A stretch of 64,000 bases of DNA from Clostridia bacterium (GTDB taxonomy: Bacteria; Bacillota; Clostridia; Oscillospirales; CAG-382): positions 17,776 through 81,775 of the forward strand of contig JAFZDO010000025.1 in NCBI GenBank assembly GCA_017561145.1, given 5' to 3'. Both the position numbers and the translations under genes were made by a program. The notes beneath the pieces were generated by a model. That model had not been told where the DNA came from. It made no database searches and was given only the letters and a program-made list of their open reading frames with translations. Positions 15,480 through 32,976 of the stretch are shown here, in pieces. Within the stretch, counting starts at the first letter, position 1; each line of letters opens with the position of its first letter.

Positions 15480-15724
15480 ACAGCAATGGAAGGGCGGGGC
15501 GAACGCTTCGCTTTCGATGAAAAACTAAAGTTTTTCACCGTTTTCCGCACGGCGGGACTTGTGAGTTGCGTTCGCTCGCGCGGAATCCGTGCGCACGGCT
15601 TTGCCGCTTGTCCGAATTCCCGCAACTCCAAGGTATATTTTTCAAGGCACATGTCCTTGAAAAATATGTTATTCTTTATTGTATAGGTAAAACTTATGTC
15701 TAAACAACAATGGAAGGGTGGGGC
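15470..15724 (+). repeat. 31-bp direct repeat (15470-15500 and 15694-15724) duplicating the first codons of the flavin reductase gene
   Basis: TTATGTCTAAACAGCAATGGAAGGGCGGGGC vs TTATGTCTAAACAACAATGGAAGGGTGGGGC, two mismatches. Confidence 0.95.
15501..15668 (+). repeat. Structured intergenic repeat element, copy A
   Basis: CGCTTCGCTTTCGA + hairpin TGAAAAACT-AA-AGTTTTTCA; GAGTTGCG...CGCAACTC stem; AGGTATA; ATATTTTTCAAGG-CACATGT-CCTTGAAAAATAT; same architecture as copies B and C. Confidence 0.85.
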
Positions 15725-16283
15725 ACTTTTGGCTCCCGTGCCGTCGGTGCTTGTTTCAAGCTCAAACGGCGAAAAGGACAATATAATAACTATCGGTTGG
15801 ACGGGGATTTGTGCCACACACCCGCCAAAGCTTTATATATCGGTCAGACCCGAACGCTTTTCCTATAATCTGATTAAGGAAAGCGGCGAATTTTGCGTTA
15901 ATCTGCCTACCGTGCAAATGGTGCGCGCGGTTGATTTTTGCGGCGTAAGGTCGGGCAGGGATATCGACAAATTCAAGGAAACCAAGCTTACCAAATCCGA
16001 TTCTTTTGCGGTAGGATGTAAGAGCATTGCCGAATGTCCCCTTACTCTCGAATGCAAGGTCGACAGAATCATACCGCTCGGCTCGCACGATATGTTTATC
16101 GCCGATATAGTTTGCGTTGCGGTTGACGAATCGATAATCGATGAAAAGGGAAGGCTGATGCTCGAGCGTGCCGACCTTTTGGCATATTCTCACGGCGATT
16201 ATTTTACCCTCGGCAAAAAGATCGGAGATTTCGGATTTTCGGTACGAAAGAAGAAAAATCTTAAAAGGAACTTCAAAAAATGA
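15696..16283 (+). CDS. Flavin reductase family protein (flavoredoxin-like)
   Basis: PVPSVLVS, NIITIGWTG, ISVRPERFS, GEFCVNLP, LECKV, GSHDMFIA. Confidence 0.88.
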   Translation: MSKQQWKGGALLAPVPSVLVSSSNGEKDNIITIGWTGICATHPPKLYISVRPERFSYNLIKESGEFCVNLPTVQMVRAVDFCGVRSGRDIDKFKETKLTKSDSFAVGCKSIAECPLTLECKVDRIIPLGSHDMFIADIVCVAVDESIIDEKGRLMLERADLLAYSHGDYFTLGKKIGDFGFSVRKKKNLKRNFKK

Positions 16284-16750
16284 ACTCTGTAACGATTATT
16301 CACGTCGGTGATTTTAAGGAAAAGTATTTCAAGGATGCCGAAAATGAATATATCAAGCGTTTGAAGGCGTTTTGCGATTACAAGACGGTCTGCATAAAAG
16401 AAGAATCCTGCTTTGGCGAGGATTCCGAAAAGCTTATTCTCCGTGCGCTTGAAAAGGAAGCAAACGGCATTCGCCAAGCGATTCCCAAAAACGCATTGAA
16501 GATAGCAATGTGTATCGAGGGAAAGCAATTATCGAGCGTTGAATTGGCGAACGTGTTCTTGAACGAATCGCGCCCGATATGCTTTATTATCGGCTCGTCG
16601 TTCGGTCTTGACGAAGCGTTGAAACGCGAATGTGACCTTCGCTTGTCGATGTCGAAAATGACCTTTCCGCATATGCTTGCGCGAGTTATGCTTGCCGAGC
16701 AGGTCTACCGAGCGTTTTCGATCAACAGCGGAAAGAAATACCATAAATAA
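16280..16750 (+). CDS. rlmH: 23S rRNA pseudouridine-1915 N3-methyltransferase
   Basis: EYIKRL, FIIGSSFGL, SKMTFPH, EQVYRA, YHK C-terminus. Confidence 0.95.
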   Translation: MNSVTIIHVGDFKEKYFKDAENEYIKRLKAFCDYKTVCIKEESCFGEDSEKLILRALEKEANGIRQAIPKNALKIAMCIEGKQLSSVELANVFLNESRPICFIIGSSFGLDEALKRECDLRLSMSKMTFPHMLARVMLAEQVYRAFSINSGKKYHK

Positions 16751-16755
16751 AAAGA

Positions 16756-16787
16756 AAAACCTGCGAATGAATCGCAGGTTTTATTTT
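16756..16787. terminator. Bidirectional terminator
   Basis: AAAACCTGCGA...TCGCAGGTTTT between convergent genes. Confidence 0.75.
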
Positions 16788-16791
16788 GCAA

Positions 16792-17256
16792 TTAATATGC
16801 AGCGTATACGCCCAAAACTACCAAGAAGATGAAGATAACGCTTAAGCCGATGCTGATAGCCGAGGTAATGATACCTGCAACTGCCATGCCGTTCTTTGCG
16901 CCAACGCTCTTTGCCTTGCTGTTACCGATGCAACCGAGGATAAGACCGGGGATGCTGAAAATAAAGGTGAAGTAGTAGAGAAGGCAGAAGAAAGAAACGG
17001 AAATGATACCGAGGATCATACCAACGATGCCAAGTGCCTTGCCGGGAACTGCAACGGGAGCAGTGGGAACGTAAGGAGGCTGATAAGGAGCCTGATATTG
17101 CTGTTGAGGTTGTTGATACTGGGGTTGTTGATATTGAGGTTGCTGATATTGAGGTTGAGCCTCCTGCTGAGGTTGTTGATTATCGAGCTTAGTACCGCAA
17201 TTAGCGCAGAAAGCTACGCCGTCAGCGTTATTCGAGCCGCAGTTAGGACAGAACAT
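16792..17256 (-). CDS. Zinc-ribbon, Q/P-rich, DUF4190-like two-TM membrane protein
   Basis: CPNCG...CANCG, QPQYQ repeats, two TM segments with GMAVAGII. Confidence 0.8.
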   Translation of the reverse strand: MFCPNCGSNNADGVAFCANCGTKLDNQQPQQEAQPQYQQPQYQQPQYQQPQQQYQAPYQPPYVPTAPVAVPGKALGIVGMILGIISVSFFCLLYYFTFIFSIPGLILGCIGNSKAKSVGAKNGMAVAGIITSAISIGLSVIFIFLVVLGVYAAY

Positions 17257-17348
17257 AATGATTATCTCCTTGTAAATTTGTTTTTAACAGTTTATCACAG
17301 AAAAATTGTAAAATCAATTGTTTTTCCCAAAAAACAACAATTATTTCC

Positions 17349-17783
17349 TTATAACATCAGACTGTTGATAAAGTAATAGTAATTGTAAAAACTTGAATCG
17401 ACAGTATCAAACAGGAAGATGACAAATACCAACGACAACAAGGCCATCACAATACCGATCACTGATGTGATGATACCGGCGGTCGCAAATCCGTTTTTAA
17501 GTCCGACTGCCTTCGCACGGGAATTTGCCATGCAACCGAGAATAAGACCGATTATAGCGCAGGGGAAGATGAGAACCGCATAGCAGAGGAACGCACAGGT
17601 GGTTGCACCGAGCACCATCGAGGTTATGCCCATGCCCAACGAAGGAATTTTGGGTTTGACCGTTTGGACAGGGGGCTGATAGGGCGAATAGCTTTGTTGA
17701 GCCGCATTTGTTATGGGCGCGCCGCAATTTCTGCAAAAGGAGGCGCCTTCGTTATTGTTAAAGCCGCATTTCTCGCAAAACAT
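17349..17783 (-). CDS. Zinc-ribbon DUF4190-like membrane protein (paralog of 16792-17256)
   Basis: CEKCG...CRNCG, LGC.AN.RAKAVGLKNGFATAGIITS. Confidence 0.8.
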   Translation of the reverse strand: MFCEKCGFNNNEGASFCRNCGAPITNAAQQSYSPYQPPVQTVKPKIPSLGMGITSMVLGATTCAFLCYAVLIFPCAIIGLILGCMANSRAKAVGLKNGFATAGIITSVIGIVMALLSLVFVIFLFDTVDSSFYNYYYFINSLML

Positions 17784-17899
17784 TTTATAAAACCTCCAAA
17801 ATATATTCTGTTAACAGTTTATCATAGGTTTGCGGAGAAATCAATCGTTTTGCCGATTTTTGTTGCAATAGCGCAGGTAAAAATTTAATACCTCTGCCG

Positions 17900-19174
17900 T
17901 TACGACAGAGGTATATTGTTCTCTTTGATATAATCGATCATCCTGCATAGCGCGTTTGCGGTCTCCTGCTTTGTAAGAGTGTGCGAGGGGGAAAGCGATT
18001 CGAAAAAGCCTGCCTTGTTAGCCGCAAGTATCGAAGAAAGCGTGCGGTCCTGCGATCCCGTGCTTACACTTTCGGAATTCGTTTCGGGTAGCTTAAGCGC
18101 AGAGCTTATCATATAAGCGGCATCGGCAACGGTTATCTTTTCAAACGGAGCAAAGGCGCCGTTGTCAAGCTTGATCAGATTTTGCTCGTTTGCGGCAGAA
18201 AGATATCCCTTCAGCCCCGACGATAATGCGTCATCGTCGCTGACTGCGCTGTCGGCAACCGCGGCGATTTCGGTATCAAGCCCTGCGGCATTCATCATCA
18301 TTACCAAAAATTCAATTTTCGAAACGGCGGCTTCGGGATCGAAATAATATTTTCCGTCGGTGATGCGGTAAACCATAACGTTCTGCGAGCAAACGCGGTA
18401 GGCATATAAATGATCCTCGCTGTCCTGCATATCCTCGAATACAAGGGAGCTTTCGTTCTCCTCGACGGTTATTGTAAGCGTTGCACGCTCGGAGGTCGCT
18501 CCGAAACGGTCGGTCACCGTATAAACAAGAGTATCCTTGCCCGAAAAGTCGGGGTTCGGGACGTAGGACACCCTACCGCTCTCTTCTATTTTGATCCTTC
18601 CGTCACGCGGATAGGTTATCACGTTTACGGTGAAGGAGTCGCCGTTTGGCTCGTTTATCTCAAGATTCGATTCGCAACCTATCCCCGAAACGGTTTTCAT
18701 AGTGCTGTCAAAAACAAGGGGAGAGAGGTTTTTTTGGTCGGTAAATGAGATCTCGCACTTGATCTCCTTGCCGTTAAGGCTTTGGGCATCGCATGAAAAG
18801 CCAAACGTCGCAAGCTCGATTTCGCCGTTGGGGACGAATTTCAGATATTCGAGCGTTGACGCGGGTATAGTCTGCCCTAAAATCACCGAGGCGCCTTTGT
18901 AAATAAGCGTGCCGAGGCTCGCTTCGGGAAGGGAAGCCACCTTGACGTACGTAAGCTCCTCGCCGACGAGCGCTTTGAAATCCTCCTTGTTAAAGGATGC
19001 CGTTTCACCCTTTTCGCTATGCTTGACAAGCGTTAATTGCTTTTGCAATATCGAAAAAGCAGGCGGTCGGTCGTACGTGTTTTCTGTAACGTTTTCGTTT
19101 CCGCTTGAGCAGGAAACAAGAAAAAACGCCATCATAATAGATAAGATCACAGCTATCGTTTTTTTCATAATCAA
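17900..19174 (-). CDS. Lipoprotein with Ig/cadherin-like domain and C-terminal S-layer homology-like region
   Basis: Lipobox LVSC; YVPNPDFSGKDTLVYTVTD; FDPEAAVSKIEF, FAPFEKITVADA, LTKQETA SLH-like motifs. Confidence 0.7.
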   Translation of the reverse strand: MIMKKTIAVILSIMMAFFLVSCSSGNENVTENTYDRPPAFSILQKQLTLVKHSEKGETASFNKEDFKALVGEELTYVKVASLPEASLGTLIYKGASVILGQTIPASTLEYLKFVPNGEIELATFGFSCDAQSLNGKEIKCEISFTDQKNLSPLVFDSTMKTVSGIGCESNLEINEPNGDSFTVNVITYPRDGRIKIEESGRVSYVPNPDFSGKDTLVYTVTDRFGATSERATLTITVEENESSLVFEDMQDSEDHLYAYRVCSQNVMVYRITDGKYYFDPEAAVSKIEFLVMMMNAAGLDTEIAAVADSAVSDDDALSSGLKGYLSAANEQNLIKLDNGAFAPFEKITVADAAYMISSALKLPETNSESVSTGSQDRTLSSILAANKAGFFESLSPSHTLTKQETANALCRMIDYIKENNIPLS

Positions 19175-19239
19175 GCCTTCCTTTGATTCGTGTCTATATA
19201 ATTAATACACGGGAGGAGCGAATATTATGACAAAATCGG

Positions 19240-19268
19240 TTGCAACATTTGCTTGCTTGTGGTAGAAT
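19240..19268 (+). promoter_or_regulatory. Putative sigma-A promoter of mnmA
   Basis: TTGCAA-17nt-TAGAAT with TG extension. Confidence 0.55.
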
Positions 19269-19293
19269 ATAAAAAACTAACGGAGGTGTCGGT

Positions 19294-20343
19294 ATGAAAA
19301 AATGCTTTGTCGCGGTAAGCGGCGGTGTCGATAGCGCGACCGCGCTTTTGTTGCTGCGCGAAAAGGGCTTTGACGTAGAAGGCGTCACGATGATCAATTT
19401 CGGCGAAGAGCTTGTGCCGAATTGCTCGCCCTCCGAGGCGAACGATGCGAAAAAGCTTTGCGATTCGTTATCCGTACCCCATCACACCGTTGATTTAAAG
19501 GAAGAATTCAAAAAAACCGTTGTCGGCGATTTCATTTCCGCCTATAAAATGGGCGAAACCCCAAACCCTTGCGTTGTATGTAACCGATATTTAAAATTCG
19601 GTGCGCTTTACGATTATGCGAAGGAGCACGGTGCTAAGGAATATGCAACGGGGCATTACGTCCGCGTGAAGCAATGCGGCGACCGCCGTGTTATCACCCG
19701 TGCCGCCGATGAGGATAAGGATCAAAGCTACGTGCTTTGGAGCTTGACTCAAGACCAAATTTCTCATTTCGTTGCACCGCTCGGCGAATTCTCGAAAAAA
19801 GAGGTGCGCGAAATTGCCGAAAAATACGGTATCCTCGTTGCGCACAAAAGCGACAGTCAGGATATTTGCTTTATCCCCAACGGAGATTACCGCGAATTTC
19901 TTAACCGCGTCGGCGGAAACAAGGACAAAAAGGGTGATTTCGTGCTTTCCGACGGCACAAGGCTCGGTTGTCATCTCGGACAGAGTCATTACACCGTCGG
20001 TCAAAGAAAGGGCTTGGGAATTGCATATAAGGAGCCGCTTTACGTTATCGGCAGAGATATGAAGAAAAATTCAGTAATTCTCGGCAGGAATGACGACCTT
20101 TTCACAACGAAGTTTACAGTAAGAAACGCGTCCTTCTCGGCACTTGATTTCCCAATATGTGATTTTGAATGCAGTGTTCGCATACGCTACCGCGCGCCCT
20201 TTGTTTCGGCAAAAATTATACCTATCGGCGAAAACCGTCTTCTCGTCGAAACACAGACCCCCGTCCGTGCGGCGACACCGGGACAGTCGGCAGTCTTTTA
20301 TGACGGCGAAACGCTTCTCGGCGGCGGCATAATCGAAGGATAA
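19294..20343 (+). CDS. mnmA: tRNA-specific 2-thiouridylase
   Basis: SGGVDS, TPNPCVVCN, ATGHY, KDQSY, DSQDICF, TPGQSAVFY. Confidence 0.96.
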   Translation: MKKCFVAVSGGVDSATALLLLREKGFDVEGVTMINFGEELVPNCSPSEANDAKKLCDSLSVPHHTVDLKEEFKKTVVGDFISAYKMGETPNPCVVCNRYLKFGALYDYAKEHGAKEYATGHYVRVKQCGDRRVITRAADEDKDQSYVLWSLTQDQISHFVAPLGEFSKKEVREIAEKYGILVAHKSDSQDICFIPNGDYREFLNRVGGNKDKKGDFVLSDGTRLGCHLGQSHYTVGQRKGLGIAYKEPLYVIGRDMKKNSVILGRNDDLFTTKFTVRNASFSALDFPICDFECSVRIRYRAPFVSAKIIPIGENRLLVETQTPVRAATPGQSAVFYDGETLLGGGIIEG

Positions 20344-20426
20344 ATTTACAAATCTATAACAAATCGAGAAAAGATTTAAAATATCACAATATTAAACTCA
20401 CGGTACAGAAAGGAGGAGTGTAAAAA

Positions 20427-21431
20427 ATGAAAAGTAAGACACTCGCACTTATCACTGCGGCACTTATCACCGCGGCGGCACTCGTTCTCACCGTGAGTCT
20501 TTCGCTTCTTAACGGCGCGGCGATCGATATCAGCGATGCTCTTGTTTCGGCGGCAGAACCCGCATTGGACGATGGAATCGCCGATGACGACGTAGCGTTT
20601 GAGGTCAACACCGAAGATGAAATCGACGTTGAGATCAATAACGACGTTGACGAAGAGATCTACGTTACTCCCGAGGATCAACCCGTTGTTGACGAACCCA
20701 CCGTTGACGAGCCTACCGTTGACGAACCCACCGTTGACGAGCCTACCGTTGACGAACCCACCGTTGACGAGCCTGTTGTTGACGAGCCTGTTGTTGACGA
20801 GCCCGCGGTCGATTTCGGCAACCCTGTATTTGCTCCGTCTGCAGAATGGGACGGCGTCGAATTGATAGAGGGCCACAGCGCACCCTATTTCATCTATGAC
20901 GTTGTTGTTCAGGTTTATGAGCACGCAACAGGCAAGCTCGTTTCCCAGACGATCTATATGGACGATCAGGTTTGGGAAGACATCAATCAGCTTCACCTTG
21001 ACGTTTATCAGCAGGGCAATTTGGTTTACGAGCCCGACGACAAGGACGCTGTTCCCGTGGGTATCCCCAACGGCAAATACCGTGTTGAAGTATACGCTAT
21101 CTGGTATGCCGACAACGGCGGATGCGGAAGCTTGTTCTTTGCTTACACCTATGGCACCAACGAGCTTATGGAAGTCTGGAAGCACGGTCAGCTTCATTCG
21201 GGCGCACAGGATTTCATCGCTTACGTCGATGCTCTTATCGCCGATGAAATGGCTCTCGTTGAAGCAGGTCAGGGCAATATCCCCGCACCTACGGACGATG
21301 TGACCTATATCTGCGGCTTTGGTGCTGACAAGGTAAGCCTTACCGCGTTTAATTGGAACGGCGATTACCACAAGATCTTTGAATCCGGACGCGGTGTTGC
21401 AAGATTCCCTTATCTCGAAACCGAAAACTGA
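20427..21431 (+). CDS. Secreted or membrane-anchored acidic protein with VDEPT repeats, function unknown
   Basis: Signal/TM N-terminus, strong AGGAGG RBS, 8 pentapeptide repeats, globular C-terminus. Confidence 0.8.
   Translation: MKSKTLALITAALITAAALVLTVSLSLLNGAAIDISDALVSAAEPALDDGIADDDVAFEVNTEDEIDVEINNDVDEEIYVTPEDQPVVDEPTVDEPTVDEPTVDEPTVDEPTVDEPVVDEPVVDEPAVDFGNPVFAPSAEWDGVELIEGHSAPYFIYDVVVQVYEHATGKLVSQTIYMDDQVWEDINQLHLDVYQQGNLVYEPDDKDAVPVGIPNGKYRVEVYAIWYADNGGCGSLFFAYTYGTNELMEVWKHGQLHSGAQDFIAYVDALIADEMALVEAGQGNIPAPTDDVTYICGFGADKVSLTAFNWNGDYHKIFESGRGVARFPYLETEN
20688..20813 (+). repeat. 15-bp coding tandem repeat (alternating variants give a 30-bp superunit) encoding VDEP(T/V/A)
   Basis: GTTGACGAACCCACC / GTTGACGAGCCTACC alternate, then GTTGACGAGCCTGTT. 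Confidence 0.95.
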
Positions 21432-21461
21432 TTCTTCACCTCTGAAAAACGGCTTTTAGCC

Positions 21462-21496
21462 AAAAAATCGGTACGATCAAATCGTACCGATTTTTT
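21462..21496. terminator. Bidirectional terminator
   Basis: AAAAAATCGGTACGAT-CAA-ATCGTACCGATTTTTT between convergent genes. Confidence 0.85.
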
Positions 21497-21498
21497 AT

Positions 21499-22182
21499 TT
21501 ATACAATGCTTATAAGTTTGCCAAGGTCGTCTATTTCGTAGGTAACGGGAAGGCTCAAAGAGTTGGGCTTGTGCGAAGGATTGAACCAACAGGTGTCGAT
21601 GCCCGAATTAAAGCCACCCTTAATATCGCCCGTGAGCGAATCGCCGATAATAAGAGCTTCGCTTTTATCGGTTATGCCGAGGGAGGCAAAAACGTGGTCG
21701 AAAAATTCCTTGTTCGGTTTTTCGTACCCGATGTCTTCCGAAATAAAGATAGCATCAAAAATCTGATCAAGCCCCGAAAGGCGAAGCTTTTTTTCTTGCG
21801 CGAGCTTTGTTCCGTTCGTGACTGCCGCAAGAACATATTTGCCCTTTTGGGAAAGGAGGAGCTCCTTTGCGTTGTCAACAAATTCGATATGGTCGCCAAG
21901 TGTGACCTGGTAATCGAGGTTAAAGCGTTCTGCGATCGAGACATCGACACCTATAAGCTCAAAAAATTCACGGAATCTGCCTATTAAAATTTCGGGCTTC
22001 GTAAGCTCGTTTCTTTCGAGCATTTTCCAATATTTCGTGTTTATGCTTGAATAGGTCGCAAGCATTTCGTCGTCGCAAACGCCGAGGTTGTATTTTTTAA
22101 ACAGAGCGCGTATTGCATATGCTTCGGCTGCAAGAAAGTTCAAAACGGTGCCGTCGATATCCCACAGTAAATATTTGTACAT
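21499..22182 (-). CDS. YjjG-family HAD nucleotidase
   Basis: WDIDGTVLNF, VTNG, EKP, IGDSLTGDIKGG. Confidence 0.88.
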   Translation of the reverse strand: MYKYLLWDIDGTVLNFLAAEAYAIRALFKKYNLGVCDDEMLATYSSINTKYWKMLERNELTKPEILIGRFREFFELIGVDVSIAERFNLDYQVTLGDHIEFVDNAKELLLSQKGKYVLAAVTNGTKLAQEKKLRLSGLDQIFDAIFISEDIGYEKPNKEFFDHVFASLGITDKSEALIIGDSLTGDIKGGFNSGIDTCWFNPSHKPNSLSLPVTYEIDDLGKLISIV

Positions 22183-22244
22183 AAAAAGCCTCTTTCGGAT
22201 GATCTTATATACAATTATACATACCGTTTAGCCAAACGCAATAG

Positions 22245-23273: not shown

Positions 23274-23365
23274 ATTTTTCTGCCTCCTTGCTTTCTTTAT
23301 TATATTATACCCAAAAAACAAGAAGGACTTCGTTGCCTGCGCAACAAAAAACATCCCTAAAAAAC

Positions 23366-23391
23366 AAAGCCGCAGTTTCCTGCGGCTTTTT
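23366..23391. terminator. Terminator-like hairpin next to element copy B
   Basis: AAAGCCGCAG-TTTC-CTGCGGCTTT with T-runs on both strands. Confidence 0.75.
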
Positions 23392-23399
23392 CTATTGGA

Positions 23400-23527
23400 T
23401 TCTATATTTTTCGAGGACATGCGCCTTGAAAAATATACCTAAGATGTTCGCGAGCGGTGAGCGAGGCGCGAGCGCACGAACATCACAAAACCGACCAAAA
23501 TGCTTGCATTTTGTGTCGAGAGCGTAC
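23400..23527 (-). repeat. Structured intergenic repeat element, copy B
   Basis: Reverse complement: ACGCTCTCGA-CACAAAATGC-AA-GCATTTTG...GATGTTCG-TGCGCTCGCGC...CGAACATC-TTAGGTATA-TTTTTCAAGG-CGCATGT-CCTCGAAAAATATAG. Confidence 0.85.
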
Positions 23528-23644
23528 GGTTAAGTCGAACCGGAGGGGCGTTCAGGCGAGTACAGATTGGACAATCATAATCCGAAGCTGTAGAAATCTA
23601 CTGCGAGCGGTTATGATTGTTCAAAGGACAAAAAATACAATGAC

Positions 23645-23678
23645 AAAAAAAGAAGAAACCGCGAAATTGCGCGGTTTC
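23645..23678 (-). terminator. nagB terminator
   Basis: GAAACCGCG...CGCGGTTTC followed on the - strand by TTCTTTTTTT. Confidence 0.8.
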
Positions 23679-23738
23679 AACCTTATAAGAACTGAATTAT
23701 AGACTTTTTGTCCGTTCTGTGCCGTATGAACGACCCGA

Positions 23739-25051: not shown

Positions 25052-25069
25052 AATGTTCCCTCTCAATAA

Positions 25070-25651
25070 TTATTCAGCAGTCGGTTCGGTTGCTTCCTCC
25101 GACGTAAAATCAAGCACTACCTGCTCGCCTGCCATCTGAAGCTCGGTCTTGGGAAGGTCGTCGATGCTTTCCAAGCCGAAGCAACGCAAAAATGCATCGG
25201 TCGTGCCGAAAAGGATCGGTCTGCCGGGTGCGTCAAGCGTGCCGCGCTCTGCAACAAGCCCCTTGTCGACAAGCGAAGCGACGATTGCCGAGCTGTCGAC
25301 ACCGCGCACCATTTCGATAAACGATCTTGTTACGGGCTGGTTGTAGGCGATAATGGCAAGAACCTCCAAGGATGCCTTTGAAAGCGGCGGTGCCTTGCGA
25401 AGCTCAAGCGCCTTTTTTACGTATTCTGCAACGTATGCCTTCGTGCAGAGCTGATATGCGCTTTCGACCGTAATGAGCTGAATGCCGCTTTCGCGGTCGT
25501 CCGCATATTTGTTTTTAAGCATCGCCGCCGCCTCGCGAAGACCTTCGGCGTTAACACCGAGTATATCGCAAAGACGGTCGAACGCGACCGGTCCGCCGCA
25601 GGCAAAAAGTATTGCCTCGAGCGCCGCGGGAGTTTCGTTATTAATATTCAT
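25070..25651 (-). CDS. scpB: Segregation and condensation protein B
   Basis: LEAILF, LSKASLEVLAIIAYNQPVTR, RGVDS, PGRP.LFGTT. Confidence 0.95.
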   Translation of the reverse strand: MNINNETPAALEAILFACGGPVAFDRLCDILGVNAEGLREAAAMLKNKYADDRESGIQLITVESAYQLCTKAYVAEYVKKALELRKAPPLSKASLEVLAIIAYNQPVTRSFIEMVRGVDSSAIVASLVDKGLVAERGTLDAPGRPILFGTTDAFLRCFGLESIDDLPKTELQMAGEQVVLDFTSEEATEPTAE

Positions 25652-25663
25652 AAACGCCTCCGA

Positions 25664-26401
25664 TTAAATGAGATTGCCTTCGGTAACGACCTGACCGTTA
25701 CCCTCGACAAAGGAAAGCTCGATATCCTCGCCGTTGCCCTCGACGTCTATCAAGCCGTCGCGCACAAGCTCGAGCAACGCCATAAATACGGCAACCGCCT
25801 CGCTTCTGCTGTGAACACCGGTGAAAAGGTCGATAAAGGTGCAGTTTCTTTTGCGCTCGAGATATTTCATAATATCCTGAGATTTTTCCTCGACCGAATA
25901 ATATCTTTCTTCAATACGCTTGAAAAGCTCGGGCTCGCCGTCTGTCTTGCGCGCGGCAACACGGTCGGCAATACGGGCAAACGCCTCGGTAAGCAATTCA
26001 ACCGCGTGGTCACGCGTGTAATCGCTCTTTTCAAGCTCGCTTGCGGGCTTTGTGAAGGTGTCGAAATGTCCTGCGCTTTGCAAACGCAAAAATTCCGCCG
26101 CCGCCTTTGCGCGTTGATGCTCAAGCAATGCATCGACAAGCTGTGCACGGGGGTCTTCGCTTTCTTCGGTACGGGGAAGGAGCATCTTGCTTTTAATAAG
26201 CATCAACTCCGCCGCCATAACGACAAATTCGCTTGTGACCTCCATATCGAGCTTTCGCATTGCATCGAGATAGGCGATATACTGATCGCATATTTCGGCA
26301 ATGGGAATATCGAAAATGTCTATTTTGTGTTTGGAAATTAGCGCGAGCAGAAGGTCAAGAGGGCCTTCGTATTGCTCAACCTTTAAATTAAGGATTTCCA
26401 T
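25664..26401 (-). CDS. scpA: Segregation and condensation protein A
   Basis: EGPLDLLL.LI, EF.VMAA.L..IKSKMLLP, F.ALLEL. Confidence 0.95.
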   Translation of the reverse strand: MEILNLKVEQYEGPLDLLLALISKHKIDIFDIPIAEICDQYIAYLDAMRKLDMEVTSEFVVMAAELMLIKSKMLLPRTEESEDPRAQLVDALLEHQRAKAAAEFLRLQSAGHFDTFTKPASELEKSDYTRDHAVELLTEAFARIADRVAARKTDGEPELFKRIEERYYSVEEKSQDIMKYLERKRNCTFIDLFTGVHSRSEAVAVFMALLELVRDGLIDVEGNGEDIELSFVEGNGQVVTEGNLI

Positions 26402-26421
26402 AAATCACCGTAATTATCCAA

Positions 26422-27138
26422 TTAAAATACAAAGCTGAATATCCAGTCTGCAAAATCAAATGAAATGCCGAAGAGAAACTCTCTGCCTACCGAAAGCGGC
26501 CAGAAGATGATTTGGGGAATGATTTCCAATTTCGGTATATTTTCCAGAATAATAAGACCCAAAAAGATATAACGCGAATAATATCTAACCTTTGAATACT
26601 TTGCCGCCAAGCGGTTGGGAAGCAAGCACATAACCACGTTCGAGCCGTCAAGCGGGGGAAGCGGTATAAGGTTAAACAAGCCCAAGCCGAAATTGAAGAT
26701 CGCCGAGTAATAAAACACCGACAGTATGGCTGTAACGGTCATATTTTCGATTTCGTTGGTTACAGCAATATAAACAACGAGCACGTAAAGCACCGTCGCA
26801 AAAAATCCGACGATAAAGTTTGTGAACGGTCCCGCCAACGAGGTAATGGCGAAATCACGGCGCGGCTTTTTGAAGTTGCGCGTCATAATAGGAACCGGCT
26901 TTGCCCAACCGAAGCCGACCAAAAGCATCATTATCGTGCCGAGAGGGTCAAGGTGATCGAGAGGGTTAAGCGAAAGCCGTCCGTCGGCTTTCGCTGTATG
27001 ATCTCCGAGCTTATACGCGGCAAAGCCGTGCGCCCACTCGTGAAAGGTCAACGCAGGAAGAAGCGCAACGACCATTATAAGCAGCTGAAGTAAAATTTCG
27101 CTGAACGAGCCGCCGCCGTATATAATGTCCAATAACAT
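26422..27138 (-). CDS. Site-2 protease (M50 family)
   Basis: HEWAH, NPLDHLD, FNLIPLPPLDG. Confidence 0.92.
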   Translation of the reverse strand: MLLDIIYGGGSFSEILLQLLIMVVALLPALTFHEWAHGFAAYKLGDHTAKADGRLSLNPLDHLDPLGTIMMLLVGFGWAKPVPIMTRNFKKPRRDFAITSLAGPFTNFIVGFFATVLYVLVVYIAVTNEIENMTVTAILSVFYYSAIFNFGLGLFNLIPLPPLDGSNVVMCLLPNRLAAKYSKVRYYSRYIFLGLIILENIPKLEIIPQIIFWPLSVGREFLFGISFDFADWIFSFVF

Positions 27139-27172
27139 TAAAAATCAGTCCTTTTTAAAATGCAATAGGGGT

Positions 27173-28804
27173 TTATTTAAGAGTGATCATCGATTTTTCC
27201 CACATATCGGGAGCTTCATAGCCCATCATGGTAACGACGGTTGCGGCAACGTTTGCAAGGCCGTAATCGCCGTCGATGCATTCGTATTTATCGCTGTAGA
27301 AATTATCGTAAATATAGCAGGGAACGGGGTTTAGGGTGTGGCTGGTCTTTGCCTTCTTGCTGCCGTCCTTGTTGGTCTTTGCAAGACCGGATTTCTTGTC
27401 GATCTCGTACATTTCATCGGCATTGCCGTGGTCTGCGGTGATGATCGCAATACCCTTTACCTCGTCGACTGCCTTAAGAATTCTTGCAAGGCAAACGTCA
27501 AGTGCTTCAACCGAGATCTTAGCCGCGATGAACGAGCCGGTGTGGCCGACCATATCGCCGTTGGGGAAGTTAACACGGAGCGCATCGTAATTGCCGCTCT
27601 TGATCTTTTCGATAAGAATATCGGTGATCTCGGCACACTTCATCCAGGGACGCTGCTCGAAGGGAACTACGTCGGAGGGAACCTCGATATATTCTTCCAA
27701 TTCCTCGCTGAACTTGCCGCTTCTGTTGCCGTTCCAGAAATAGGTAACGTGACCGTATTTTTGGGTTTCGGAAATTGCGAGCTGACGAACGCCCTTGTTT
27801 ACAAGGAATTCGCCCATAGTGTTGCTGATCTCGGGAGGAGAAACGAGATATCTGGAGGGGATGTGAGCATCTCCGTCATATTCAAGCATACCTGCGTAAA
27901 CTACGCTGGGAACACGCTTGCGGTCGAACTTGTCAAAGTCTGCGCCTGCTTCAAAGGTCTTGCTAATTTCAATAGCGCGGTCACCGCGGAAGTTGAAGAA
28001 TACAACGCTGTCGCCATCCTCGATGGTGCCGACGGGCTTGCCGTCGCGTGCGATAACGAAGGGTGCGAGATCCTGGTCGATAGCGCCGGTTTCGTTTCTT
28101 AAGGTGGTGATAGCTTCTTCGGCGGAAGCGAAAAGTCTGCCTTCGCCGAGCACGTGGGTAGCCCAGCCCTCTTCAACCATTGCCCAGTTTGCTTCATATC
28201 TGTCCATGGTGATGACCATTCTGCCACCGCCCGATGCGATGCAAACGTCGAAATTATCGTCGCGGAGCTCGCTTAAGAATTCTTCGAAGGGGCAAACATA
28301 ATCAAGCGCACTGGTTTCGCCGACGTCACGGCCGTCAAGAAGAATGTGGATACGAACCTTGCTGAGTCCTTCTTCCTTAGCGCGTACCACCATTGCCTTT
28401 AAATGGTCGATGTGAGAGTGAACGTTACCGTCCGAGAAAAGACCAAGGAAGTGAAGCGTGCTGTTTTTAGCGTTGTCAACGATCTGCTTCCAGGAATCGC
28501 TTGCGAACATTCTGCCGGTTTCGATAGCTTCGGAAACGAGCTTTGCGCCCTGAGCGAAGACCTGACCTGCGCCGAGCGCGTTATGGCCAACCTCGGAGTT
28601 GCCCATATCGTCGTCGGAGGGAAGACCTACTGCGGTGCCGTGTGCCTTAAGGCTGAAGCAGGGATATTTTGCGGCAAGCATATCGAGCGTGGGGGTGTCA
28701 GCCGCTTTGATGGCGTTGCCCTCCTCACGTGCGCAAATGCCGATGCCGTCCATTACAATTGTGATAACAGGGCGCTTTTCTGCGCCGAAAATTCCGTTAG
28801 ACAT
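27173..28804 (-). CDS. gpmI: 2,3-bisphosphoglycerate-independent phosphoglycerate mutase
   Basis: MGNSEVGH, DGNVHSH, LDGRD, FNFRGDR, DMVGHTG, TADHGN. Confidence 0.97.
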   Translation of the reverse strand: MSNGIFGAEKRPVITIVMDGIGICAREEGNAIKAADTPTLDMLAAKYPCFSLKAHGTAVGLPSDDDMGNSEVGHNALGAGQVFAQGAKLVSEAIETGRMFASDSWKQIVDNAKNSTLHFLGLFSDGNVHSHIDHLKAMVVRAKEEGLSKVRIHILLDGRDVGETSALDYVCPFEEFLSELRDDNFDVCIASGGGRMVITMDRYEANWAMVEEGWATHVLGEGRLFASAEEAITTLRNETGAIDQDLAPFVIARDGKPVGTIEDGDSVVFFNFRGDRAIEISKTFEAGADFDKFDRKRVPSVVYAGMLEYDGDAHIPSRYLVSPPEISNTMGEFLVNKGVRQLAISETQKYGHVTYFWNGNRSGKFSEELEEYIEVPSDVVPFEQRPWMKCAEITDILIEKIKSGNYDALRVNFPNGDMVGHTGSFIAAKISVEALDVCLARILKAVDEVKGIAIITADHGNADEMYEIDKKSGLAKTNKDGSKKAKTSHTLNPVPCYIYDNFYSDKYECIDGDYGLANVAATVVTMMGYEAPDMWEKSMITLK

Positions 28805-28847
28805 AAAAATTTACCTCTTGGTTTTAAAAATATATTTTAACAGATTA

Positions 28848-28876
28848 ATTATAGCGAAAAAATGTTGATTTTTCAA
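28848..28876 (-). promoter_or_regulatory. Sigma-A promoter of gpmI
   Basis: TTGAAA-17nt-TATAAT on the - strand. Confidence 0.7.
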
Positions 28877-28908
28877 GTGTTTTTTGCAATTATTTTGCAA
28901 CTATATAT

Positions 28909-28937
28909 TTGACAACAGCGGTAAAAGATGATATAAT
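28909..28937 (+). promoter_or_regulatory. Consensus sigma-A promoter of the nusB operon
   Basis: TTGACA-17nt-TATAAT with TG extension. Confidence 0.85.
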
Positions 28938-28970
28938 AACGTGATTTACTATGTACACATATACGAGGTA

Positions 28971-29465
28971 ATGAATATGACAAGACGTGAATCGCGCGAG
29001 GTCGCAATAACTCTGCTTTTTGAACGCAGCTTTGATTACGATCGCACCGCAGAAGAAATTATGGAATCGGCAGTTGCCGAACGCGATATCAAGATAAGCG
29101 AATTTGCCCGTCAGCTTTTTATCCGTGCGGATGAAAACCTTGGCGACATCAACGAAAAGATCGAGCGCTGCACAGATAATTGGCGCCTTGACAGAATCGA
29201 TCGCGTTTCGCTTACCGTTCTTCGCATTGCGGCGTGCGAAATAGATTATTTCCCCGAAATTCCTGTTGAGATCACCGTTAACGAGGCGCTTGAATTGGCG
29301 CGTCATTTCGGCGAGGAGGAATCTGTCGGCTTTATCCACGGCGTGCTTGGAAAATATGCAAAGGGCGTCGAAAAGCCTCTTGCAAAGAAAAAGCCGCTTG
29401 AAGCAGAGTCCGAAGAAGACAGCGAAGAAATTATCATGTCCGCTTCGGGAGAAGATGCCGAATGA
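28971..29465 (+). CDS. nusB: Transcription antitermination factor NusB
   Basis: RRESRE.A, WRLDRI, VNEALELA, FIHGVLG; start set at the ATG after GAGGT. Confidence 0.92.
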   Translation: MNMTRRESREVAITLLFERSFDYDRTAEEIMESAVAERDIKISEFARQLFIRADENLGDINEKIERCTDNWRLDRIDRVSLTVLRIAACEIDYFPEIPVEITVNEALELARHFGEEESVGFIHGVLGKYAKGVEKPLAKKKPLEAESEEDSEEIIMSASGEDAE

Positions 29466-30661
29466 ACGGTCAGACCGTAAAAACCATTACCGTTGAGCAA
29501 TTAAACACATATATAAAGGATTACCTTTCCACCTCTCCGCTGCTTAACAAGGTCGTTGTTAAGGGCGAGCTTTCGAACGTGCGCGTTTACGGCGGAAGCG
29601 GCCATATTTATTTCACCCTCAAGGATGAAAATTCCGCGATCCCCGCAACGATGTTCGGCGGTGCTTCGAAATTGAAGTTCAAGCCCGAAAACGGCATGAA
29701 GGTCGTTTGTACCGGCAGAGTTGCGGTTTTCGTGCGCGACGGACAGTACCGTCTTTATGCCGAGGAGATGGAGCCCGACGGAATCGGTTCGCTTTATATC
29801 GCCTTCGAGCAATTAAAGGCAAAGCTGCAAAAGGAAGGCCTTTTTGCGCCCGAGCATAAGAAAAGGATACCGAAAATTCCCTTTTCGGTCGGCATAATCA
29901 CCGCTCCGGGCGGTGCGGCAGTGCAGGATATGATAAACGTATCGCGCCGCCGTTTTCCTGCCGTTAAGCTTTATCTTTATCCCTCGTTGGTACAAGGACC
30001 GTCGGCGCCCGCACAGCTTATAAATGCGTTGAAAAATCTTGATGAATCGGGCCTTTGCGACGTTATTATCATCGGCCGCGGCGGCGGAAGCACCGAGGAC
30101 CTTTGGTGCTTTAACGATGAAGGCCTTGCGCACGCCGTTTATGAATGCAAAACGCCGATAATTTCGGCGGTCGGACACGAAACCGATTTTACAATATGCG
30201 ATTTTGTGGCAGATCTTCGCGCTCCCACTCCGAGCGCGGCGGCAGAGCTTGCCGTACCCGACGTGCGCGATCTGAAAAAACAGTTCGAAAACGTACAAAG
30301 CCGCCTTGTAAACACCCTTTCCGCAAGAACCGATTATTTGCGCCAGCGCCTGCTTACCTTGTCGCAGCGCCCCGTTCTTCAAAGTCCGCAAAGCTATTTT
30401 GACGACAGACGTATGGCGGTCGCAAGGGACGAGGAAAGATTGTATCAGCTTGTCGGCAACCGTATCGAGCGTGAACGGATGAAGCTATTCGCGCAGAACG
30501 AAAAATTAAACAGCTTGAACCCTCTTTCGGTGTTGGGACGCGGATTTTCGGTTGCCTTCGGCGAAGACGGCAAGGCGATAAGAAGCGTTGACGAATTACC
30601 CGAGGGAACGGAATTTGAGCTTTTACTTAAAGACGGCAAAAAGAAAGCGATAGCTAAATAA
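29462..30661 (+). CDS. xseA: Exodeoxyribonuclease VII large subunit
   Basis: GELSN, GHIYFTLKD, GRGGGS.EDLW.FN, SAVGHETD, APTPSAAAE. Confidence 0.96.
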   Translation: MNGQTVKTITVEQLNTYIKDYLSTSPLLNKVVVKGELSNVRVYGGSGHIYFTLKDENSAIPATMFGGASKLKFKPENGMKVVCTGRVAVFVRDGQYRLYAEEMEPDGIGSLYIAFEQLKAKLQKEGLFAPEHKKRIPKIPFSVGIITAPGGAAVQDMINVSRRRFPAVKLYLYPSLVQGPSAPAQLINALKNLDESGLCDVIIIGRGGGSTEDLWCFNDEGLAHAVYECKTPIISAVGHETDFTICDFVADLRAPTPSAAAELAVPDVRDLKKQFENVQSRLVNTLSARTDYLRQRLLTLSQRPVLQSPQSYFDDRRMAVARDEERLYQLVGNRIERERMKLFAQNEKLNSLNPLSVLGRGFSVAFGEDGKAIRSVDELPEGTEFELLLKDGKKKAIAK

Positions 30662-30683
30662 ATTAAAAGAAGAAGTTGTTGAT

Positions 30684-31574
30684 ATGGCAAGAATTTTAAG
30701 AGCAATGACAAAGGACGGCTCGGCAAGAGCCATTTTATTGGACGGCCGCGATATCGTTGAGCGCGCACGTCAGATACACAACACCACCCCCGTTGCAACC
30801 GCGGCGTTGGGCAGAACTCTGCTTGCGACATCGCTTGCGGGCTCGATGCTCGGCGAAAAGGAAGACGTTATAACCATCCGTTTTAAGGGTGACGGCGTTG
30901 GCGGAAGTGTTGTTGCAACGAGTGACTGGTGCGGCAACGTGCGCGGATTTATCCAGAACCCCTCTGCCGATCTGCCTCTTCGCGCCGACGGAAAATTGGA
31001 CGTTGGCGGCTGTATCGGTCAGGGCGAGCTTTATATCCTCCGCGATGCGGGCGGAAGCGAACCTTACGTTGGTATTTCAAAAATCCAAACCGGCGAGGTC
31101 GGTGACGATATTGCATATTATTATGCAACGAGCGAGCAGATCCCCACGGTTTGCGCTTTGGGTGTGCTTGTCGACAGAGATTATACCGTTCTTCGCGCAG
31201 GCGGTGCACTTATTCAGCTTCTTCCTTTCTATGACGATGAGGTTGCCGAAAAATTAGAGCAAAACGCGGCAAAAATGCGCCCCGTTACAAAAATTCTTTC
31301 GGAGGGCACTCTCGAGGACGTGCTTGCCGAGGTGCTCGACGGCATTGAATATGACCTTTTCGACGAGATCGAATGCGAATATAAATGCGCCTGCAGCCGT
31401 GAAAAGACCGATAACGCGCTTATCTCGCTTGGCACAAAGGAATTGACCGATATGATCGAAAACGGCGAAGACGTTACCGAAATGACCTGCAGCTTCTGCG
31501 ATGCCGTTTATAAATATTCGAAAAGTGATTTAAAGCATCTGCTTAAAATCGTTGAGAAAAACAATGAAAAATAA
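30684..31574 (+). CDS. hslO: Redox-regulated chaperone Hsp33
   Basis: TAALGRTL, SEQIPT, C-terminal CAC...CSFC zinc centre. Confidence 0.95.
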   Translation: MARILRAMTKDGSARAILLDGRDIVERARQIHNTTPVATAALGRTLLATSLAGSMLGEKEDVITIRFKGDGVGGSVVATSDWCGNVRGFIQNPSADLPLRADGKLDVGGCIGQGELYILRDAGGSEPYVGISKIQTGEVGDDIAYYYATSEQIPTVCALGVLVDRDYTVLRAGGALIQLLPFYDDEVAEKLEQNAAKMRPVTKILSEGTLEDVLAEVLDGIEYDLFDEIECEYKCACSREKTDNALISLGTKELTDMIENGEDVTEMTCSFCDAVYKYSKSDLKHLLKIVEKNNEK

Positions 31575-32283
31575 TATTAAAACCGCACTTGTTACGGGCG
31601 GCGCAAGAGGTATTGGCGAAGCGATATGCCGTGCGCTCTCGCGCGAGGGATTTTATCTGTATATCCATTGCAACCAAAGTATTGATACGGCGAAATCGCT
31701 TTGCGAGGAGCTTGGCAACGCCGAATATATTTCTGCAGATTTGACCGATCCCGAATCGGTAAAAATGCTTGCCGAGAAATGTGCCGACGTTGACGTTTTG
31801 GTCAACAACGCAGGCACTGCGCTTGTTTTTCCGTTTGACGCGATCAGCGATGAAGCGGCAAGAAAAATGTACGAGATCAATCTTTTTGCCCCGATAAATC
31901 TTGCAAGAAGGCTTTTGCCGAATATGATCAGCCGCAAAAGCGGTGTGATAATCAATATTTCATCGATATTCGGCGAGGTCGGCGGAAGCTGCGAGGTCGA
32001 TTATTCCGCCGCAAAGTCGGGTATCATCGGCTTTACAAAGGCGCTTGCCAAGGAGGTCGGACCTGCAGGCATTCGTGTGAACTGCGTTTGCCCCGGCATT
32101 ATCGATACCGATATGAACGGCGACCTTACATTTGAGGATATCGATTCGCTTTGCGATGAAATTCCGCTTGGCAGAATGGGCGAACCCGACGAGGTTGCAG
32201 AATGTGTGGCGTTTCTGGCGTCCGACAAGGCGAAATACATTACGGGAAGCGTTTTTGATATAAACGGCGGTTGGCAGGGATAG
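31564..32283 (+). CDS. SDR oxidoreductase, FabG/YmfI(EfpI)-like
   Basis: TGGARGIG, NNAG, SSIFGEVGGSCEVDYSAAK (YmfI-like signature). Confidence 0.85.
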   Translation: MKNNIKTALVTGGARGIGEAICRALSREGFYLYIHCNQSIDTAKSLCEELGNAEYISADLTDPESVKMLAEKCADVDVLVNNAGTALVFPFDAISDEAARKMYEINLFAPINLARRLLPNMISRKSGVIINISSIFGEVGGSCEVDYSAAKSGIIGFTKALAKEVGPAGIRVNCVCPGIIDTDMNGDLTFEDIDSLCDEIPLGRMGEPDEVAECVAFLASDKAKYITGSVFDINGGWQG

Positions 32284-32330
32284 CGCTACGCTCTCGACAC
32301 AAAAATCCAAGGATTTTCTTGTTCCGACAA
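32283..32330 (+). repeat. Partial copy (5' hairpin module) of the structured repeat, directly upstream of dut
   Basis: GCGCTACGCTCTCGACACAAAAATCC-AA-GGATTTT, sharing ACGCTCTCGACACAAAA with copy B. Confidence 0.75.
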
Positions 32331-32340
32331 GGAGTAAATT

Positions 32341-32811
32341 ATGAACCGTATTGCAAAGTTTTATAAGGTGTCCGAAGCGCAATTTAACCGCGAGGGCTAC
32401 GAAAATATAACCCTTCCGCGCCGCGCAACGGCGGGCTCGGCAGGTTATGATTTTATCGCGCCTTATGATTTTTCGCTTGACGTGGGCGAGGAGATCGTTA
32501 TTGATACCGGCATCCGTGCGAAAATTGCCGACGGTTGGGTTTTGGTAATACTTCCGCGATCGGGCTCGGGATTTAAATACGGCGTCCGCCTTGCGAACAC
32601 TGCAGGCGTTATCGATTCTGATTATTTCAACGCCGATAACGAGGGACATATTAAAATCAAGCTTGTCGGCGGAAGTAAAACCTATACCGTAAAAGCGGGC
32701 GACGCTTTTGCACAAGGCATATTTCTTCCTTACGGCATTACCGAGGACGATGATTGTGCCGAGGAACGCCACGGCGGGTTTGGAAGCACGGATAACCCCC
32801 GAAGTCGCTAA
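32341..32811 (+). CDS. dut: dUTP diphosphatase (trimeric dUTPase)
   Basis: SAGYD, PRSG, GVIDSDY, AQGIF, RHGGFGST. Confidence 0.95.
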   Translation: MNRIAKFYKVSEAQFNREGYENITLPRRATAGSAGYDFIAPYDFSLDVGEEIVIDTGIRAKIADGWVLVILPRSGSGFKYGVRLANTAGVIDSDYFNADNEGHIKIKLVGGSKTYTVKAGDAFAQGIFLPYGITEDDDCAEERHGGFGSTDNPRSR

Positions 32812-32976
32812 CGCTCTCCCCAAAAAATCTAAAGATTTTTTAGGGACCCCATAGTCGCTTCGCTCCGTTTGGATGTTCGTGCGCTCGCGCCAACCTTGTG
32901 CGCGCCTTCGGCTTGTCCAAGGTTGCGAACATCGAAGGTATAAAAATCGACGCACATGTCGCCGATTTTTATAGAA
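32803..32976 (+). repeat. Structured intergenic repeat element, copy C
   Basis: CGCTAACGCTCTC + CCCAAAAAATCT-AA-AGATTTTTTAGGG; GATGTTCG-TGCGCTCGCGC-CAACCTTG...CAAGGTTG-CGAACATC; AGGTATA; AAAATCGACG-CACATGT-CGCCGATTTTTATAG. Confidence 0.85.

Follow-up and report, generated by a model that had tools for sequence, protein, structure and literature searches.

What kind of element recurs between the housekeeping genes of a gut Clostridium as a set of hairpins, with stems that change from copy to copy and loops that do not, is the question raised by this locus. The window, by which the whole analysed stretch of 64,000 nucleotides is meant (assembly GCA_017561145.1, contig JAFZDO010000025.1, positions 17,776 to 81,775 of the forward strand), comes from a metagenome bin of a Clostridia bacterium (1.55 Mb, 45 contigs, 68% complete, 47% G+C). 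A first-pass annotation made from the letters alone had described a modular multi-hairpin element in three copies, A (15501-15668, + strand), B (23400-23527, - strand) and C (32803-32976, + strand), with a partial copy at 32283 (P hereafter), and its motifs were all found as claimed when the sequence was re-read. The family is new, occurs in uncultured gut Clostridia and has insertions in gene ends, and it is regarded here, with rather more confidence than doubt, as a family of non-autonomous, mosaic, palindromic mobile DNA elements that are primarily selfish and insert with a long duplication of the target.

Further copies, on which the first-pass annotation had made a functional family depend, are abundant. 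The own genome of the window holds at least 25, with 28 nhmmer matches at E<1e-8 to a profile of A, B and C and the core pattern at 26 places. In other public genomes, an exact-pattern scan with one genome per species found the core pattern at no fewer than 110 loci, nearly all of which, among the matches listed, lie in bins from ruminant, yak or sheep gut with the labels Eubacteriales, Clostridia or Oscillospiraceae; the matches listed include 134 profile matches, of which 100 are full length and 99 are distinct. The element is present in 33 of the 61 genomes of the window's genus, usually in many copies, and of 151 genomes sampled from the whole order, a covariance model found it in 10 (G000 among them), which belong to five families and usually have 6-23 copies. 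Diverged relatives at the order level keep the order of parts, i.e., a hairpin, a branched module, an AGG(T/G)(A/G)TA-like linker, and a hairpin with a C(A/G)CATGT loop, and eight loci among the matches listed, including one in an Agathobaculum isolate, match by module 3 alone (33-40 bits) and have a different module 2. Viral contigs gave no match to the core pattern, and there is consequently no sign of a phage-borne master copy. Within the genus, 4 of the 23 genomes at least 90% complete carry the element as against 33 of 61 overall, the carriers being mostly less complete bins; this skew reflects either a single carrier clade or repeats that fragment assemblies and lower completeness estimates.

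The first-pass annotation could assign the element to no named family, and this has held: Rfam 15, scanned over the window at gathering scores, matched none of the copies, and in E-value mode over 15300-33200 the best match on the element was STnc40 with 36.5 bits, below its gathering score of 45. A description of the family was not found in literature that covered few subscription journals, searched by motif text, variable-length repeats, REPINs (hairpin-forming doublets of repetitive extragenic palindromes, REP) and RAYT (REP-associated tyrosine transposase) in Firmicutes, and MITEs (miniature transposable elements with inverted repeats) or REP in Oscillospiraceae-type bacteria.

The element is approximately 140-230 nt long and non-coding, with no conserved open reading frame, and the order of its parts was read from alignments of the own copies and 99 foreign ones (among the matches listed). 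It begins with the head CGCTnCGCTCT. Between one and three small hairpin units come next, for which three types are known, most often CCCC-A5...T4-CGGGG-ACCCC, and a small CCCGCGCGGCGGG hairpin is often present after them. TTTGTGA stands before module 2, in which an outer stem of 8 bp, a stem of 2 bp closed by a TCGC loop, an inner stem of 8 bp enclosing GTGCGC, an apical hairpin, and CTTGTCC are present, and which also occurs in shorter forms. The linker (C/T)(A/T)AGGTATA joins it to module 3, whose stem of 13 bp is capped by the loop C(A/G)CATGT. The architecture proposed in the first-pass annotation stands with two amendments: the sequence given for module 1 is right, the module being a separate small unit, and the element extends 3' of module 3 into a ragged, A/T-rich tail with the consensus TATGnnATTTTTATTGTATA. 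ATT(G/A)TA, which is TAYAAT on the complement, occurs in 94 of 147 distinct tails; a promoter there would be a lead only, since inspection by eye, with no scan for promoters, showed no -35 box. Approximately 10 of 26 own copies continue into an extra hairpin and a GTAG-headed REP, and tandem arrays are found at L088 (units of element plus flank), and at L134 and on contig C1 of G044 (five head-to-tail copies).

That whole stems are replaced with pairing kept and unpaired bases fixed, as the first-pass annotation had seen in its few copies, is evident in 42 distinct sequences of modules 2 and 3 (A, C and 40 from other genomes). Of their 1456 cells, 95.5% are paired compared with 71.0% in shuffles, none of 500 shuffles reaching the observed value, and the share falls to 34-46% when the structures are slid by 1-3 columns. 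Both sides have changed in 28 of the 36 pairs, in 367 cells. Each position of the outer and inner stems has three to four Watson-Crick pair types (329 of 336 cells paired per stem), the 2-bp stem of module 2 switches from GC/CG to AT/TA (84 of 84 cells), and a 4-bp block of module 3 flips as a whole from TTTT/AAAA to AAAA/TTTT (23 versus 19 sequences), while all 42 of the 42 sequences agree in the linker and in the loop of module 3. Related sequences can exceed shuffles in the absence of structure, and it is the slid controls and the number of pair types that argue against such an artefact of kinship. Stem changes between orthologous copies at the site of copy A (site A) are compensated too. 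The original proposal of a structured and dispersed family, non-autonomous and selected for pairing, is borne out by copy number and covariation.

The element is mobile, since species differ in whether an orthologous site is occupied. A copy is present at site A in G000, G003 (flanks 90% identical), G017, and G022, a remnant in G016 (part of module 3 and the tail) and in G002 (the tail alone), and nothing in G009, G012, G013, G015, G018, and G021; in these empty genomes there is one gene start, and the stop of the upstream gene overlaps it. At the P site nothing is inserted in G016, whereas the site has the module 1 unit in G000, a small gene in G022, and the right arm of module 3 with the tail alone in G003. 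Copy C is absent from L132, other filled and empty pairs are L064 versus G000 and L128 versus L122, and two sites of G017 and G022 are filled there and empty in several genomes; the pairs found include L143 and L144. One DNA contig from another sample joins 23390 to 23526 without copy B (a single contig with 33 letters on its shorter side) and another joins 15452 to 15664, although joints at 90% likeness may stem from relatives.

The small module 1 unit also moves independently, into the loops of other hairpins. The own genome has 49 such units, 19 just before module 2 and 30 elsewhere, the latter including tandem runs with a 39-nt period and copies in the loops of other hairpin repeats. The unit is nested at differing points of module 2 in 14 of 100 full-length foreign copies (among the matches listed), and among 27 own copies it is nested inverted in the module 3 loop of three and in the apical loop of module 2 of one. 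Tandem runs of the small C4A5 unit in the own genome were noted at C2:59839-59960, on C3 (- strand, approximately 5393-5510), and on C26 (- strand, 268-385), and the unit also occurs within the loops of a hairpin repeat GGCTTCCCC...GGGGAAGCC.

Many insertions of the element are newly shown here to be flanked by long, variable target duplications, which often rebuild the interrupted gene ends. Copy A, described correctly in the first-pass annotation except that its flanking repeat was missed, lies between 31-nt direct repeats (15470-15500 and 15694-15724) with two mismatches, and the repeated stretch is single-copy at the empty orthologous site in six related genomes. For 114 copies, the 160 nt before the head were aligned to the 260 nt after module 3 with a score cut-off of 14, and a flanking direct repeat scoring at least 14 was found in 23 of them versus 0 of 114 mismatched pairs of upstream and downstream flanks. 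From these 23, two tandem arrays (L134), one repeated small unit, one REP, and one double-counted locus were set aside and four site A orthologues were discounted, two further pairs looking orthologous, so that approximately a dozen independent loci remain. Their duplications measure 20, 22, 25, 31, 31, 39, 47, 48-49, 53, 54, 55, 57-85, 71, and 106 nt, several of them being 100% identical. Mostly, 2-8 nt separate the end of the upstream repeat from the head, and the downstream repeat starts 0-45 nt after module 3, which makes the 5' end of the insertion precise and the 3' end ragged. At site A, the duplication is 31 nt in G000 and L058, 47 nt in G017, and approximately 85 nt in G022, next to the six empty genomes; at a second G017 site 67 nt are duplicated, including the first 14 codons, and in L128 106 nt, with L122 empty. 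The duplications of L132 (71 nt), L092 (55 nt), L090 (54 nt), and other loci were read from the filled loci alone, and L205, from another family of the order, has a duplicated gene start beside its element copy.

The repeats coincide with gene ends. In at least five loci the repeat contains the Shine-Dalgarno site and first codons of a co-oriented gene, and in six it contains the last codons of an opposite-strand gene ending in ...CCGAAGTAGTGACG; the gene end duplicated in L128, together with its terminator, is that of a 915-amino-acid protein with a C-terminal type I dockerin domain. In each case, the repeat copy beside the gene body keeps the gene intact and the other is a dead remnant. The first repeat copy at site A also gives the upstream ThiF-family gene its stop codon, and at two sites the tail ends in AGGTAAAA immediately ahead of the restored ATG. 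Inspection of the junctions by eye for microhomology gave no consistent rule, with some dockerin targets resembling the head (TGACGCT).

Insertion sequences IS1634 and IS1549 are autonomous, 1.6-1.9 kb long, and have a DDE transposase and inverted ends. Passages of a published account (PMC2266710) give them long variable direct repeats of 8-514 bp, for which there was 'no mechanistic model', and the element shares with them long, variable direct repeats on insertion and an unexplained mechanism. A miniature derivative of an IS1634/IS1549-type insertion sequence would fit the 20-106 nt seen here, which lie within that reported range; the element, however, lacks an open reading frame and inverted ends, and no transposase accompanies it consistently. 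Among 12 bodies defined by their duplications, only one has terminal inverted repeats that surpass the shuffles' 95th percentile, the 3' end is not a defined one but ragged, and PF01609 (IS4-type transposase) is absent from three of the five element-rich near-complete genomes and from all three tested genomes of genus g7. Such a derivation is the least probable of the explanations considered here.

Whether DNA or RNA is folded, and on which strand, can be approached from the imperfect pairs. One-sided changes make up 2 of the 1456 cells, and G-U intermediates are nearly absent; the non-Watson-Crick cells on the written strand are 38 A.C versus 2 G.T, 25 of the A.C cells being at one module 3 pair, and the commonest small unit shares the A.C feature (29 of 49 units end in T-run-CGGGG). 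With DNA parameters, the fold of the complement is the more stable one for 103 of 115 distinct copies (mean 2.8 kcal/mol), and with RNA parameters for 94 of 115 (mean 5.0). These features are read as palindromes that would be kept at the DNA level, the folding strand being the complement of the strand written in the first-pass annotation. A structured RNA, either a cis-acting element of an untranslated region, a terminator or stabiliser, or a small RNA, kept by selection at the RNA level and spread only secondarily, would likewise account for strong covariation and conserved loops. The A5-stem-T5 arrangement of module 3 resembles a two-way intrinsic terminator, the TAYAAT of the tails lies on the complement, and a contig from an RNA library, identical over 221 nt, covers a gene end and the 5' half of copy A, these contigs lacking strand and ends and the library possibly holding DNA. 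The contigs listed from this RNA run and from one possible RNA run include no piece over most of the stretch, copies B and C among it. The near absence of G-U intermediates is, however, unusual for RNA helices and expected of DNA palindromes, all orientations of the element to the adjacent genes occur, the T-run precedes the stem in half of the module 3 copies, which hence are not terminators, and no Rfam match was obtained. A function as RNA is considered rather unlikely.

The first-pass annotation had noted that no enzyme gene for the element lies within the window, which was confirmed, and had proposed mobilisation in trans by HUH enzymes (RAYT or the TnpA of IS200/IS605), which was not. 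In the own genome (68% complete), neither PF01797 (Y1 transposase) nor PF07282 (TnpB) has a match, IscB being outside the search. A REP/REPIN-like or IS200/IS605-derived substrate of such a tyrosine enzyme would be expected to form hairpins with fixed caps and one strand folding better, as the element does; RAYT-like genes are present in the genus, including the closest relative G003, a GTAG-headed REP follows some of the own copies as described above, and the small unit often has (A/G)TAG on its 3' side. The RAYT-like proteins (167-186 amino acids) were first seen as weak PF01797 matches and score 61-81 bits with the NCBIfam profile REP_Tyr_transpos, one of four passing the cut-off of 80. Their co-occurrence with the element is flat: within the genus they are found in 17 of 61 genomes, 10 of 33 element-bearing versus 7 of 28 element-free (two weak or fragmentary), PF01797 is found in 21 of 61 (11 of 33 versus 10 of 28), and across the order the RAYT-like profile is found in 33 of 151 (2 of 9 other element-bearing versus 31 of 141 element-free). 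The profile has no match in the seven sampled genomes of family f7, and RAYT-like genes are absent from four element-rich f7 genomes (90-98% complete) as well as from G077 (99%), G012 (96%), and G066 (95%). Copies flanking a RAYT gene, a check that the annotation had suggested, were looked for, and the RAYT-like genes of G069 and G003 were found to lie instead between inverted GTAG-headed hairpins and 81-nt arrays of those hairpins. RAYT and IS200/IS605 enzymes leave no target duplication, yet 20-106 nt are duplicated here, and mobilisation by them is judged unlikely.

A classical REP/RAYT system was observed in the genus alongside the element, with a RAYT-like gene of 174-203 amino acids at L180 (G069:C46) and L182 (G003:C40) and GTAG hairpin arrays of 81-nt period downstream of it; this REP is also present in the own genome, e.g., from C2:87283 onward. 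The system is a neighbour of the element and separate from it: REPs are short, imperfect palindromes with a conserved GT(A/G)G head and REPINs are inverted doublets, while modules 2 and 3 have no GTAG head and the element does not form an inverted doublet. Palindrome-associated elements derived from IS200/IS605, and REPINs, resemble the element in being non-autonomous, hairpin-based, and in favouring one strand. They leave no target duplication and depend on a Y1 HUH enzyme. The element, unlike IS200/IS605 derivatives, has long duplications and no association with a Y1 enzyme.

A retro-element resembling a short interspersed nuclear element, in which RNA of the complement strand is copied into nicked targets by target-primed reverse transcription, predicts that the 3' end (the head) is precise and the 5' end (the tail) ragged and that duplications vary, and the polarity of the junctions fits. 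The fold of the complement is the better one, A.C being G.U there, partial copies with a head alone exist (P, for example), and reverse transcriptase (PF00078), found in 16 of the 61 genomes of the genus, is present in 12 of 33 element-bearing versus 4 of 28 element-free ones, a weak excess among genomes that are kin. Reverse transcriptase is nevertheless absent from four of the five element-rich genomes 95-100% complete and from G044, G012, and G066, and remnants with the tail only or module 3 only are also found. Retrotransposition of this kind is judged very unlikely. Altogether, PF01797, PF07282, the RAYT-like profile, PF00078, and PF01609 gave no candidate enzyme, with IS110, IS91, serine and tyrosine recombinases, and IscB not among the families searched.

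For the mobile DNA element preferred here, a route of insertion may be proposed. The modules would function as hairpins when the DNA is single-stranded, the strand concerned being the complement of the written one, and the invariant AGGTATA with the module 3 loop may be the recognition site of a trans-acting factor. A copy could be laid into the target between two nicks 20-110 nt apart, or, as an alternative route, the nascent strand could switch template into the element and then back upstream, and either would duplicate the target. The head junction would be precise to a few bases and the 3' junction could fall anywhere from 0 to approximately 45 nt after module 3. Insertions within first or last codons would survive because the duplication restores the cut gene end, and the flanking repeats could then permit precise loss and tandem amplification via unequal recombination. 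New 5' leaders (tail AGGT-N7-8-ATG), short C-terminal extensions, and terminator-like hairpins would be side effects. It is conceivable, though tentative, that this is the first small non-coding multi-copy element known to spread by insertion with long target duplication through host replication or repair and without its own transposase; AGGTATA and the CRCATGT-loop hairpin would then guide either a switch of template at hairpins or nicks that are widely spaced.

Several points weigh against this interpretation. The copy-in step is one that we infer, no enzyme or host factor having been identified. All genomes are metagenome bins, in which misassembly at a single locus is possible, albeit unlikely since orthologous junctions recur in independent bins and runs. 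The moved unit is not sharply defined, because the repeat includes the tail in G017 and G022 and part of module 3, its right arm, in G022, with L092 being similar. Local tandem duplication of the element with its flank could yield part of the pattern, and only approximately one-fifth of the copies show a flanking duplication; the others may have inserted in another mode or lost one repeat. As to the strand, the asymmetry rests largely on one A.C pair of module 3 and one pair of the small unit in copies that are related, and the RNA-library contig over copy A leaves room for its co-transcription and a role at the RNA level. Orientation bias is weak: GC skew on the written strand is positive for 86 of 137 copies, and a crude open reading frame call, which is noisy (copy C was mis-called via a spurious long frame), gives a co-oriented upstream gene in 84 versus 46 cases, neither count being relied on by itself. 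Strictly lagging-strand elements of single-stranded DNA are usually more strongly biased.

Long target duplication without a mobility gene has a precedent in restriction-modification gene units, for which passages of Furuta et al. (2010; PMC2853133) describe insertion with a long, variable target duplication and no other mobile element, the authors hypothesising that the flanking repeats then drive amplification and suggesting double-strand breakage by the restriction enzyme as a common property. As far as those passages go, these units and the element share an orthologous site that is occupied or empty, repeats longer than 30 bp that are single-copy when the site is empty, variable repeat length, the lack of a mobility gene, repeats overlapping gene ends, and possible amplification (PMC2853133). 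For the element, an empty site, repeats above 30 bp, and no mobility gene were found together at site A, the second G017 site, and L128. The restriction-modification inserts described there (PMC2853133) are kilobase gene cassettes that occur once, whereas the element is 140-230 nt long, non-coding, structured, and multi-copy, and, unlike those units, it encodes no breakage enzyme.

In architecture, the element may be likened to the bacterial interspersed mosaic elements (BIMEs) and BOX elements, a likeness that concerns architecture and not sequence. BIME/REP mosaics of enterobacteria and BOX of pneumococci are intergenic mosaics of palindromic boxes in a fixed order, with one box variable in number, no coding capacity, many copies, and clustering with other repeat types. 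To our knowledge, long target duplications, insertion in coding ends, and nesting of boxes in loops are not features of either. MITEs have terminal inverted repeats and a short fixed target duplication, and the element has neither. Guide RNA (omega RNA) loci of TnpB/IscB differ as well, as the element's genome lacks PF07282 and no Rfam match was obtained, with IscB not searched.

Small palindromic repeats are common in bacteria, and how most families move is unexplained. The element offers three handles on this problem, namely covariation that defines the recognised parts, nesting of modules in hairpin loops, and a repeated signature of long duplication. A high-copy miniature element would be a far better system for working out the mechanism of long duplication, and, if spread by host machinery is true, dozens of events per genome and recent duplications that are 100% identical would make that mechanism directly testable. 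The annotation of rumen and gut Clostridia is also concerned, as dead duplicate gene starts and ends, extended frames, new leaders, and broken assemblies arise from the element.

The features of the window copies are collected in the table below. The covariance model was built from 40 copies of other genomes with A and C, which are its members, whereas B is independent of it and was matched nonetheless. In the rest of the window no match was better than E 0.0026, the weaker ones being module 3 on the opposite strand.

Table. Parts of the element copies in the window and their target duplications (positions of the window)
Feature	Position	Strand	Basis or remark
Copy A, upstream target duplication, 31 nt	15470..15500	+	last codons and stop of ThiF-family gene; dead copy of first 9 codons of next gene
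Copy A, head (CGCTTCGCTTT at 15504-15514), module 1 hairpin (15515-15540), small GC hairpin	15501..15558	+	
Copy A, module 2: outer stem, 2-bp TCGC hairpin, inner stem, apical hairpin	15559..15628	+	covariance model (match 15559-15667 +, 112.6 bits, E 2.5e-26); pair counts
Copy A, linker CAAGGTATA and module 3, 13-bp stem, invariant loop CACATGT	15629..15667	+	covariance model
Copy A, ragged tail (GTTATTCTTTATTGTATAGGTAAAAC)	15668..15693	+	AGGT 8 nt ahead of restored ATG
Copy A, downstream target duplication, 31 nt	15694..15724	+	working start of flavin-reductase-like gene
Copy B: head, GCAAGC-capped module 1, short-form module 2, module 3, short tail	23391..23529	-	covariance model (match 23404-23488 -, 69.7 bits, E 1.3e-15)
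Partial copy P: head and module 1 hairpin alone	32284..32328	+	between SDR gene stop and dUTPase gene
Copy C, 5' part: small-unit remnant, head CGCTAACGCTCT, one full small C4A5 hairpin unit, second head	32796..32867	+	
Copy C, modules 2 and 3	32868..32972	+	covariance model (match 32868-32972 +, 110.5 bits); site empty in L132
Copy C, tail with ATTGTAT	32973..32998	+	

The neighbouring genes are of housekeeping type: ThiF-family and flavin-reductase-like around A, glucosamine-6-phosphate-isomerase-like and 2-hydroxyacid dehydrogenase around B, and SDR, dUTPase, and YhbY-type around P and C. The stop codon of the dUTPase gene (32809-32811) lies inside the head CGCTAACGCTCT of copy C.

Other repeats were observed next to the copies. 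Adjoining copy B, window 23528-23737 (core approximately 23548-23632) holds another repeat family with a long hairpin ACAATCATAA...TTATGATTGT; the whole stretch is absent from the orthologous place in G003, and the core matches other loci in G002, G016, G017, and G022 at 85-88% identity. After copy C, at approximately 33010-33060, a motif AAGTTTTGAAGAGAGCGCGAGAG...CTTTTT with a hairpin recurs upstream or downstream of genes and also follows many element copies elsewhere (e.g., L043, L128, and C37 and C3 of the own genome); in L128, the dockerin gene has it as its terminator region, and the 106-nt duplication includes it.

The sole Rfam match in the window is a flavin mononucleotide (FMN) riboswitch aptamer at 46652-46766 (- strand), with 105.7 bits against a gathering score of 66.2. 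Summed contig depth over 27341-28674 was 20-100 times that of neighbouring bins in three of four runs, where a highly conserved gene (open reading frame 27173-28804, - strand, 543 amino acids) probably recruits contigs of other organisms.

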